Assembly: GCA_965223705.1 (NCBI GenBank)
Contig: OZ245015.1
Span: 1,824,001 to 1,888,000 of the forward strand
Direction of reading: 5' to 3'
Length of the DNA stretch: 64,000 bases
From: Myxococcota bacterium
Lineage (GTDB): Bacteria; Myxococcota_A; UBA9160; UBA6930
The position numbers were made by a program, and so were the translations under genes. Shown piece after piece: positions 61,026-63,807 of the stretch; within the stretch, counting starts at the first letter, position 1; each line of letters opens with the position of its first letter. A model generated the notes under the pieces. That model was not told the DNA's origin and made no database searches. It worked only from the letters and a program-made list of their open reading frames with translations.

Positions 61026-62496
61026 CGCGCTCGCGGATGCGCCAGATGTCGAGACGGCGGACATGGCGGTCGACCCGACGCGCCCAACGCGTCTCCATTT
61101 TTTGCGCGTTCGCGATCAGCCAGTTCTCGAGGCCCCGTGCGTAGCCGCGGCGGCCGACTTCGTAGACGAACCAGGTCGCCGGACTCCTGTCGAGCTCTTC
61201 GGACCACGGGTATTCCGCGTCCCAGACTTCGCTTCGGTAGTCGGAGATGGTGACCTCATCGCCAAATCGCAGCTCGATGTTGGTCTCGACGATGTCGCCC
61301 TTGGAAGCGCGATCGACCACGTACGCGTAGGCCGCCGCGTACGAGATGGCCGACCGCTCGATGAAGTAGGACGCTGTTGCGGGCAGTGATGCTGCGACCA
61401 GCAGGCCGAGCGGGGCGAGAGCCCCGATGGATCCGACGGTTTTCCTCGTCTCATCGTAGATTCCGCCGCAACACATGCCCGCGGACAGGTAGAACCACGG
61501 AAAGGCGACCGTCACGTAGCGCGGCACGACATTCATCAGGTACCCAGCGATCGCCAGGACGGGAAGAGTCACCCCGACAGCGATGAGGGCGAGCGCGGCC
61601 ACGTGGCGGTCCGCACGGCGCCACAGCCACCAGAGGCCGAACCCGACGGCGGCCGTCACCGCGAGCGTCAGGTGATCGAGGGTGAGGACCGGGATCTGGC
61701 GCCACGGCGGTGTCTTCCAGGGCTCGTACCCGAGCCACACCGAGAAGAGGCGGATGACGATCGGCGAGGCCGCGAGCGCTCCGACCGCGCCGAGCCCCAA
61801 GCTGATGGCGAAGGTCTTCCGCACGCGCGGCTCCGGCACGAGGGCGTCGAGCCGGAGCGCGAGCAGGCAGTAGAGACCGGTGATCACGAGCGAGAGCGAG
61901 GCCACGAAGTGACTGCTCGTCGCCGCTGCGGCGCACACCAACGCGAGAATCCAGTCGCGGAGGTTCGCATGGCGCAGATACCGGAGGAAGAAGCCGAAGT
62001 GGAGCGAGCCGAAGAGAAAGACGGTCGCGTAGTAGCGGGCGAACTGTGAGATCTCGACGTGGAACGCGCTCACGCAAACGAGCGCCGTACCGCAGGTCGC
62101 GCCGACACGGCCGATCGCCTGACGCGCGAACCAGTAGAACGCGAACAGGCCGAGGATCCCCGAAATGATGGCCGGGAGCCGACCGGCCCAGGCGCGATCG
62201 AGGGGGAGCTCGAGGAAGACGCGGGTGATGTAGTAATAGAGCGAGAACAGACCGCGGGCACCGGGATTTTCCAGCGCGGTCGCCAAGGTGATCGGCTCGT
62301 CGCCCCGGATGTCCCACGTGCCGGCTCCGTAGACGCGCAAGATCGCGCCGACGACCAGCGCGCCTACGAGGACAAGCGTGATGATGACCTCGCGCCGCTC
62401 TCCCGTTTCGGCGGCGGCTCCCGGGTGTGACTGACTCAAGCTCGTGGGCCTCGTGCGGTGGATAGGCAGCACAGCGGACGCTCGCCGGCGCCGCAA
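61015..62496 (-). CDS. membrane glycosyltransferase (GT39/ArnT-PMT-like)
   Basis: LR.......I..DE, RLP....G, SQFARYY; many TM segments; start uncertain. Confidence 0.8.
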   Translation of the reverse strand: MRRRRASAVLPIHRTRPTSLSQSHPGAAAETGERREVIITLVLVGALVVGAILRVYGAGTWDIRGDEPITLATALENPGARGLFSLYYYITRVFLELPLDRAWAGRLPAIISGILGLFAFYWFARQAIGRVGATCGTALVCVSAFHVEISQFARYYATVFLFGSLHFGFFLRYLRHANLRDWILALVCAAAATSSHFVASLSLVITGLYCLLALRLDALVPEPRVRKTFAISLGLGAVGALAASPIVIRLFSVWLGYEPWKTPPWRQIPVLTLDHLTLAVTAAVGFGLWWLWRRADRHVAALALIAVGVTLPVLAIAGYLMNVVPRYVTVAFPWFYLSAGMCCGGIYDETRKTVGSIGALAPLGLLVAASLPATASYFIERSAISYAAAYAYVVDRASKGDIVETNIELRFGDEVTISDYRSEVWDAEYPWSEELDRSPATWFVYEVGRRGYARGLENWLIANAQKMETRWARRVDRHVRRLDIWRIRERANP

Positions 62497-62602
62497 CCGC
62501 AGCTTCGGTGAATTCCTCTACCTTCGTAGAAAGAAACGATCTTTCCAGTCAAGTGCGAAATAGGTCAGGACGATGGGTTTTTCACCACGCAGGAGCTGTG
62601 TG

Positions 62603-62690
62603 CTCCTCGAAGAGGCAAACCTGTGGAAACGCAGGGACGCAAAGCCGTTGCCCTCGCTCTGTGCAGGGTCGAACGGCCGTCGAAGGGAGA
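62603..62690 (+). ncRNA. c-di-GMP-I (GEMM-I) family riboswitch aptamer
   Basis: CG-AAGA-GGCAAAC-CTGTG-GAAA-CGCAG-GGACGCAAAGCC core; second helix GCCGTT/AACGGC and GCCCT/AGGGT; P1 closes with CG..GGGAG. Confidence 0.8.
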
Positions 62691-62694
62691 ACGG

Positions 62695-62781
62695 ATGCCT
62701 TTTTTGCTCCTGGGCCTGCTCGGCCTGCTCGGCCTGACGCTCGCGGGTTCTCGCTATGCGGAGCTCACGACGCGCCGCTAG
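62695..62781 (+). CDS. 28-aa hydrophobic peptide downstream of the riboswitch
   Basis: MPFLLLGLLGLLGLTLAGSRYAELTTRR*; AAGGGAGA RBS 4 nt upstream, overlapping the riboswitch P1. Confidence 0.5.
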   Translation: MPFLLLGLLGLLGLTLAGSRYAELTTRR

Positions 62782-62793
62782 CGACCGCGCCGA

Positions 62794-63807
62794 CTACGCC
62801 TTCGCCGGAATCCACGGGGACACGTACACGCGTACGGAGCCACCGATGCCCTTGAGGTCGTCGGCGTCGATCAACATGCGAAACGAGTGGAAGAGATCCG
62901 GGTTCGACACTTCGGTCTCGTCCAGAACCGGTTGGGTGGCCACGATGCCGGCCGCCGGCGCGAGTTTGAGAATCCGCGAAGCCCGTGGGACACAGGGGCC
63001 GATCAAACCGACCCCGCGGCGAAAGCGGCTGCCCACCATGCCGACGACGACACGACCGTGATCGAGTGAAAGCCTCGGGAGCGGCAACGCGGGGTTCTTG
63101 TCGCGCAGGGCGACCAACCGACGGCGCATTTCGAACGCGGCAGGGACGGCCTCTCCGGGACCTTCGAAATAGAGCAGGGCGCCATCTCCTTCGAAGTCGT
63201 GGACGTCGCCGCAGTGGTAGACGCCGATCTCCGCGACGGTCTCCATGAACTCCTGAACCAGCGCGAGCACGTCGGGCGGCTCGAGTTCCATGACCAGCGG
63301 TGTCGAGTCGACCATGTCGACGAACAGCACCGTCAGGTCGCGCTGAAACGGAAGCTCGCGCCCGTGGAGGAACGAGCGATCTTCGAGGCTCGAGAGAAAC
63401 GGGTCGCCGCCCCCGGCATCGAGCTCCGGAGGCGAGTCGCCCGCCACCCAGGTGTACGAATCGCGGCGGCTCGCGTCGACGTTGGGTGTGTCCTGTCCCG
63501 CGAGGGCCCATGCGGAATAGCCGCCCGCGAGGACCGCGACGTCTCGGTAACCCAGGCTGAGGAGGAGCCGCGCCACGCGCGAGCTTGAAGACTCGCCGCT
63601 TCAGAGGCAGTACGCGACGATCGGCGTGCCCCGATCGATGTCGGGCAGCAGGATCGGATCGTCGTCGAGAAAAATCGGGACCGCATTCGGCAAACCCTTG
63701 GGCAGCTCCTCGAAGCCTTTCCGTCGCCGGACATCGAGCACCAGAGGTGCGTCGCTCGAGGCGAGCATCGGAGCCAGCAGGGCCGGCGTGAGGGTGTGGA
63801 TCGACAT
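62794..63807 (-). CDS. rhodanese-class III nucleotide cyclase fusion, probable selenoprotein (UGA at 63601-63603)
   Basis: ORFs 63601-63807 and 62794-63576 are in the same frame, separated only by TGA. Read-through gives LDVRR...IVAYCL-U-SGESSSSRVARLL..LGY.DV..LAGGY.AW (complete rhodanese fold), then LFVDMVDST...GDG...G...G...ASR (cyclase). Confidence 0.8.
63566..63585 (-). promoter_or_regulatory. putative bacterial SECIS hairpin
   Basis: At +16 to +35 after the UGA: AGC-U(bulge)-CGCGC-GUG(loop)-GCGCG-GCU, with the apical loop starting GU at +25. Confidence 0.55.

Follow-up and report, generated by a model that had tools for sequence, protein, structure and literature searches.

A natural G20/U92 variant of the GEMM-I riboswitch ahead of a 28-codon reading frame in a Myxococcota bacterium

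Predictions of the cyclic dinucleotide that a GEMM-I aptamer senses draw on its positions 20 and 92. An element near the end of the window (the whole stretch of DNA analysed, 64,000 nucleotides) was originally predicted to be a GEMM-I riboswitch with G20 retained and U at the position of C92, and this raises the question whether such a natural pocket still answers to c-di-GMP, accepts another ligand or marks a decaying copy. A cmscan run of the window returned RF01051 (c-di-GMP-I, GEMM-I) at 62604-62684 (+) with 48.1 bits (cut-off 35, E 2.5e-6) and an alignment covering the full model (positions 1-87), which upheld the proposed identity. Two natural pocket variants belong to the same clan, CL00126. 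RF03167 (c-di-GMP-I-GGC) scored 43.2 bits, below its cut-off of 59, and c-di-GMP-I-UAU was not reported at gathering level in the window, the listing leaving out lower-scoring clan overlaps; position 20 is G. The GGC and UAU names presumably give the bases at 20, 47 and 92, and the window RNA, G-A-U, matches neither. The features of the locus are as follows.

62588..62609, +, upstream hairpin that takes up all of the P1 5' strand (predicted ON state, ligand absent; folding against shuffles)
62603..62689, +, c-di-GMP-I (GEMM-I) aptamer (RF01051 score, pair list, subfamily covariation)
62603-62609 with 62681-62682 and 62685-62689, +, P1 with two A's looped out (pairs read from the window)
62612 and 62614, +, G18 (two bases 5' of G20) and G20, the alpha-base reader (window letters)
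62615-62640, +, P2 (pairs read from the window)
62626..62629, +, GNRA tetraloop (GAAA) of P2 (window letters; GNRA in 140 of the 141 subfamily members listed)
62641, +, A47, intercalating between the ligand bases (Rfam alignment and window letters)
62644-62677, +, P3 (pairs read from the window)
62650..62673, +, P3 core GCCC/GGGU with bulged G83 (62671) and no UAA past the C-G pairs (window, subfamily alignment)
62680, +, U92, variant beta-base reader (RF01051 alignment and window letters)
62685..62689, +, Shine-Dalgarno-like GGGAG, the 3' strand of P1 (window letters)
62695..62781, +, 28-codon ORF with a leucine-rich hydrophobic first half and a basic end, the only candidate target (reading frame; translation predicted)

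The Vc2 numbering was moved over via the Rfam consensus and verified with the residue lists given in the accessible parts of PMC3764141 and PMC6140456. G20 is indeed retained (62614) together with A47, and U stands at 62680, which RF01051 aligns with the first C conserved on the 3' strand, as had been claimed. The pocket is thus G20/U92, neither the canonical one with C92 nor A20 with C92 as in GEMM-Ib. No register puts C at position 92 with P3 and the G14-C93 pair both intact. Misalignment or assembly error was ruled out by the RF01051 alignment, by the second U92 copy in the genome and by an independently assembled contig of public run X3 that spans the stretch with 0 differences (X3 is probably the source sample, and this contig excludes an assembly slip only). 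The pairs G21-C46, C22-G45 and G14-C93 (C93 at 62681) are present, and C 62638 and G 62671 are in place for the C44-G83 tertiary pair. Two deviations had escaped the original prediction: A49 faces C (62678, C90) rather than U, giving an A49-C90 mismatch, and G occupies 62612, two bases before G20. The remark that the canonical tetraloop receptor was not evident holds for the UAA bases, which are replaced by UCG, but not for the C-G pairs, which are kept (CCC/GGG); the three bases after these pairs differ widely across the subfamily described below. Unconstrained folding formed P2 and P3 and not P1 (z -0.78, no better than shuffles), as expected of a junction that ligand stabilises.

Vc2 of Vibrio cholerae, the RF01051 prototype (PDB 3IRW, 3MXH), has in common with the window aptamer the three-way junction, G20, G21-C46, C22-G45, A47, the GNRA loop, the C44-G83 contact and the G14-C93 pair. 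The window aptamer differs in U92, a four-base J1/2, the A49-C90 mismatch and a P3 core that reads GCCC/GGGU-CGAA and lacks the UAA of the receptor; the conserved receptor contact is given as A35-G79-C59 in the portion of PMC3764141 available. The G20/U92 pocket is that of the engineered Vc2 C92U mutant (PDB 3MUR, 3UD3; Smith 2010, Shanahan 2011; PDB entries of Vc2 mutants in the available parts of PMC7288161 and PMC10671752), but the window RNA carries it as a natural, inherited change in another scaffold. According to the accessible part of a review citing Shanahan 2011 (PMC12032345), C92U lets Vc2 bind 3'3'-cGAMP. In vivo, as far as the accessible text of 10.1101/617340 goes, Vc2 C92U gave 30-fold less small RNA, partly restored by a diguanylate cyclase, and its response to raised c-di-GMP persisted. 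G20 and C92 are described as less conserved than A47 in the available part of PMC9049102, and the available parts of PMC8835794 and PMC7266159 contain nothing on U92. No paper on the present subfamily or testing natural U92 or G92 aptamers was found, and primary surveys and their supplements may list or test such RNAs; in the literature found, U92 has so far been measured only as an engineered mutant.

The genome holds two RF01051 matches, and the other copy (L001), which precedes a PilZ gene, has the G20/U92 pocket as well. Smith 2010 reportedly counted C92U among natural variants, with an about 1000-fold loss for c-di-GMP. RF01051 matches were found in 12 of 41 genomes, the host included, and had in common a P3 core that departs from the Rfam consensus. 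Searching with a pattern built on that core yielded at least 119 loci in genome_contigs, in records from Myxococcota, Deltaproteobacteria, Cellvibrionales and other gammaproteobacteria. Addition of the relatives' loci and removal of 12 duplicates left 122 distinct aptamers, 120 of them with both pocket bases assigned; among these matches listed, 67 were G20/C92, 24 A20/C92, 20 G20/U92 and 9 G20/G92, and none was A20/U92 or had A92. A metagenome scan limited to non-C at position 92 gave 27 loci with 22 new aptamers (17 G/U, 5 G/G), among which neither A20 nor A92 occurred. In an order-wide scan the pattern occurred in 38 of 193 genomes, and 30 of 53 matches were fetched as loci; viral contigs gave 0 matches. 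The survey of relatives showed U92 to be recurrent and common in the subfamily, not a one-off.

The comparisons below use a pool of 141 aptamers among the matches listed (63 G/C, 38 G/U, 26 A/C, 14 G/G), obtained with a slightly different pattern and enriched for non-C by design. A at 92 and the A20/U92 combination were both missing from this pool, and the C93-G94 dinucleotide was kept in 38/38 U92 members compared with 53/63 canonical ones (matches listed), which argues that the position is constrained rather than decaying. Covariation was assessed in 66 pooled aptamers hand-picked across the pocket types. The named structure had 95% of its cells paired, against 30-42% in slid controls, and two-sided changes were seen in 10 of 26 pairs, all in P1 (4/7) and P2 (6/6). 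C44-G83 was present in 66/66; the invariance of the P3 core follows from the construction of the search pattern, which contains these bases, and is hence uninformative.

Several arrangements were recorded during this survey. One genome (G028) carries all four pocket types (L007, L015, L017, L018, L019), among them L018 (G92) and L019 (U92) before paralogous LamG-like genes 4.7 kb apart. Tandem aptamers lie about 290 bases apart at L123 (U92 followed by C92) and at L218 (U92 twice). Three RF01051 matches with altered 5' junctions, having a P2 insertion or no GGCAAA core (L012 in G035, L013 in G033, L266 in G041), are possibly further variants or broken copies.

The genes downstream of the pooled aptamers (matches listed) were grouped by family with Pfam naming, 42 aptamers, the window copy among them, having no assigned family. 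A PilZ gene followed in 11/11 cases a U92 aptamer, L001 included, and so did an HDOD gene in 3/3. EAL-HDOD genes were preceded by 4 U92 and 3 C92 aptamers, the U forms making one branch beside the C forms in the tree; pilin genes by 2 U92, 4 C92 and 1 A20/C92; genes for an 'LNPNQ' protein by 2 U92 and 5 C92; and genes for a 160-aa protein of Cellvibrionales by 1 U92, 16 C92 and 1 A20/C92. Three small families also mix U92 with C92, so that seven families in all hold both G20/U92 and G20/C92, and a LamG-like pair has one U92 and one G92. This spread over gene families indicates, from sequence comparison, that U92 arose several times and is inherited, mostly alternating with the canonical pocket.

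The position of the aptamer suggests how it could act. The ATG at 62695 opens the 28-codon ORF, and the Shine-Dalgarno GGGAG lies 5 bases upstream of it, inside P1; 117 of the 141 subfamily members listed have a Shine-Dalgarno-like motif no more than 14 nt past G94. The product had no Pfam match and was absent from the protein collection by exact look-up. The upstream hairpin has a predicted energy of -11.8 kcal/mol (z -3.22; 2/200 shuffles as good), and the 7-nt P1 strand pairs with upstream bases with a probability of 0.94 against 0.65 in shuffled sequence. Such pairing exceeded shuffles in 98 of 133 members with enough upstream sequence (matches listed), the mean excess being modest (0.51-0.57 against 0.40-0.50 shuffled, by pocket type) and drawn from kin that are not independent. 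Transcription attenuation was set aside, as neither a terminator-like site nor a sigma-70-like promoter was detected within 62380-62900. A translational OFF switch based on competition between P1 and the upstream hairpin is the predicted mode, modelled from folding, and we infer its direction and its target as follows. With no ligand, the hairpin would hold the 5' strand of P1 and leave the Shine-Dalgarno free; bound ligand would close P1, sequester the Shine-Dalgarno and silence a 28-codon membrane peptide. Upstream lies a PMT_2 glycosyltransferase gene in divergent orientation and downstream a convergent gene, and neither of these neighbours stands beside any other fetched aptamer. No RNA data for the locus were listed among public runs.

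We favour, with a probability of roughly 0.55, the reading that the window aptamer is a functional GEMM-I translational OFF switch for c-di-GMP with a higher threshold and reduced selectivity. G20 would read a guanine, and U92 would swap the three-bond G-C pair for a weaker contact, so that the switch would answer mainly to c-di-GMP at a higher concentration and discriminate poorly against 3'3'-cGAMP. A retuned c-di-GMP sensor is preferred on two grounds: U92 alternates with C92 in the seven families, and no cGAMP synthase was found in gammaproteobacterial carriers of U92. In addition, the U92 targets PilZ, HDOD and EAL-HDOD are typical parts of c-di-GMP networks. Against this stands that some PilZ-type and GEMM targets are able to serve either signal, and the gene context of the window copy itself gives no clue to the ligand.

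The strongest competing reading, tentative and on balance unlikely, is that G20/U92 is a second natural solution for 3'3'-cGAMP, driven here mainly by the product of a Hypr-type GGDEF enzyme. In GEMM-Ib, the c-AMP-GMP riboswitch (Geobacter Gs1761, PDB 4YAZ), which has the same fold and is represented by 24 of the 120 subfamily members (A20/C92, matches listed), A20 is combined with C92 and the adenine lies in the alpha site; the accessible parts of PMC6140456 and PMC5888326, which set out the roles of G20, A20 and C92, describe many A20 aptamers as bispecific. Since the window RNA is G20/U92 and not A20/C92, it could bind cGAMP only in the opposite orientation, with guanine on G20 and adenine Watson-Crick paired to U92. 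Inverted cGAMP orientations are reported for a class II aptamer in the available part of PMC13715770. The original suggestion that U92 could favour adenine gains from the cGAMP binding of engineered Vc2 C92U and matters in a host that encodes a Hypr-type GGDEF, but the comparative evidence, namely U92/C92 swaps before the same gene families and 7/17 U92 genomes without the Hypr pattern, leans to a weaker c-di-GMP sensor.

The host enzymes were examined in this connection. In the window genome, 17 genes account for 19 GGDEF matches; there are 2 DAC matches, and SMODS gave none. One REC-GGDEF protein (G000:C1:1093709-1095136 (+), L181) has Ser at the Hypr signature, as taken from the available part of PMC6456294, with the GGDEF motif kept. 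It is likely a 3'3'-cGAMP synthase by its predicted activity, and by this signature the genome has the Hypr GGDEF expected of a GEMM-Ib host. One such copy is found in most relatives carrying the subfamily. The genome has no A20 aptamer, both its GEMM-I copies being U92, which favours the cGAMP reading over the c-di-GMP one. In 81 carrier genomes the Hypr DNA pattern accompanied A20/C92 in 22/24, G20/U92 in 10/17, G20/G92 in 5/5 and G20/C92 in 19/51, and its occurrence tracks lineage more than pocket type. The gammaproteobacterial U92 carriers G041, G046 and G052 had no Hypr hit, even with a looser pattern. Two lenient matches in G041 proved not to be GGDEF genes, and the Hypr match of G093 looks atypical. 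U92 in genomes without a Hypr hit speaks against cGAMP, but a missing pattern is only a weak to moderate argument because the genomes are incomplete, because a SMODS enzyme is present in G041 (none was hit in G046 or G052), and because G041 and G055, neither with a Hypr hit, carry A20/C92 aptamers too.

The most direct sign of a cGAMP-reading U92 comes from an SLT lytic transglycosylase gene, which is preceded by 23 A20/C92 aptamers and 1 G20/U92 (L210) and never by G20/C92 (matches listed), a double swap that also counts against the c-di-GMP reading. L210 is, on the other side, a single metagenome contig of 1096 bases. It has in common with the window aptamer the rare G18 and C90, and a tree of 18 of the 24 riboswitch-linked proteins (fragments below 150 aa excluded) places its protein within the A20/C92 members without resolving a sister. 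The closest SLT homolog in the window genome has no riboswitch upstream. The A20/C92 riboswitches before SLT genes (L006, L007, L009, L014 and 19 more) belong to Myxococcota-type genomes, nearly all with Hypr GGDEF, which makes the SLT lytic transglycosylase a candidate cGAMP target outside Geobacter. A20 was found in 24 of 91 C92 aptamers and in 0 of 51 non-C92 ones (matches listed), with p 9e-6, a value that overstates the exclusion because 23/26 A20 aptamers belong to one gene family. Such exclusion favours the cGAMP reading but would be equally expected if two weakening changes abolish binding, and U92 is mixed with G20/C92 in the seven families but with A20/C92 alone in just one. The more general proposal of one GEMM-I scaffold with a four-letter pocket code (G20/C92 for c-di-GMP, A20/C92 for cGAMP, G20/U92 for flipped cGAMP or truly dual, G18/G20/G92 for another ligand), under which the window aptamer would be a natural riboswitch for cGAMP bound in the flipped orientation, appears quite unlikely.

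It is improbable that the window copy is the decaying remnant of a switch whose gene has been lost, in which U92 would be one of several damaging changes. Rare features do point this way: no bulged A follows GCC (1/141), UCG follows the receptor pairs (1/141) and the A49-C90 mismatch is uncommon (11/141; matches listed). The Rfam score is low, the target is an orphan 28-codon ORF, and the subfamily pattern is absent from two same-genus genomes, 87% and 75% complete. On the other hand, P1, P2, P3, the Shine-Dalgarno spacing and the competing hairpin are all intact. The locus was also recovered without gaps, at low depth and with base 62680 not displayed, in contigs of three other studies: X5 record 9 (62519-62764, 11 other letters), X6 record 18 (62503-62670, 6 other letters) and X7 record 25 (62430-62690, 19 other letters). 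L056, with the same G18, G20 and U92, likewise precedes a hydrophobic ORF, of 29 codons, its likeness to the 28-codon one being one of length and hydrophobicity.

A pocket type marked by G18 with G or U at 92, having a different ligand (e.g. a purine-pyrimidine cyclic dinucleotide) or a rearranged beta pocket, is highly improbable for the window copy: G18 occurs in 10/14 G92 aptamers across several unrelated targets, against 2/63 G20/C92 and 0/26 A20/C92 (matches listed), and L220 (G18, G92, C90) is close in sequence, but only 3/38 U92 members (the window copy, L056 and L210) have it (p 0.36, not significant), shared ancestry of the G92 aptamers could explain the covariation, and the genome has no SMODS-family cyclase. 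A preference for c-di-AMP was discarded as unlikely despite the 2 DAC matches. It is the G20A/C92U double mutant that binds c-di-AMP (accessible parts of PMC7288161 and PMC9049102), G20 is kept here, and A20/U92 is the combination missing from the pool.

The G20/G92 type was noted as such in 14 of 141 aptamers (L017, L018, L074, L079, L085, L088, L129, L134, L138, L201, L205, L206, L208, L220; matches listed). Its targets are unrelated (subtilase, LamG-like, DUF4124-aspartyl protease, beta-propeller), and no description of it was found in the literature. The value of the finding lies in this matched natural panel, the G20/G92 type with its covarying G18 included: four pockets on nearly identical scaffolds, in part within one genome or before the same gene, would allow retuned sensitivity and switched ligand to be told apart by comparing a few RNAs. 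Should U92 read cGAMP, cGAMP regulons have been under-counted, PilZ and HDOD genes included; if it does not, U92 offers a simple route to a higher c-di-GMP threshold.

The gene adjoining the 28-codon ORF (62794-63807 (-)) has an in-frame TGA at 63601-63603, within the active-site loop of a rhodanese domain (Pfam, E 1e-9), and by sequence it probably encodes a selenoprotein. The TGA aligns to Cys in L185, a 54% identical homolog, and to TGA in the homolog L187, and SelA and tRNA-Sec are present in the genome. At 63566-63585, 24 bases past the TGA, there is a bulged hairpin capped by a GUG loop (z -1.8 alone, not significant in longer context). The domain past the TGA, which had no Pfam match, is taken by us from its motifs to resemble class III nucleotidyl cyclases, presumably with unusual residues at the substrate and catalytic positions. 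The genome has another rhodanese-like gene that contains an in-frame TGA, at G000:C1:146102-146413 (+).
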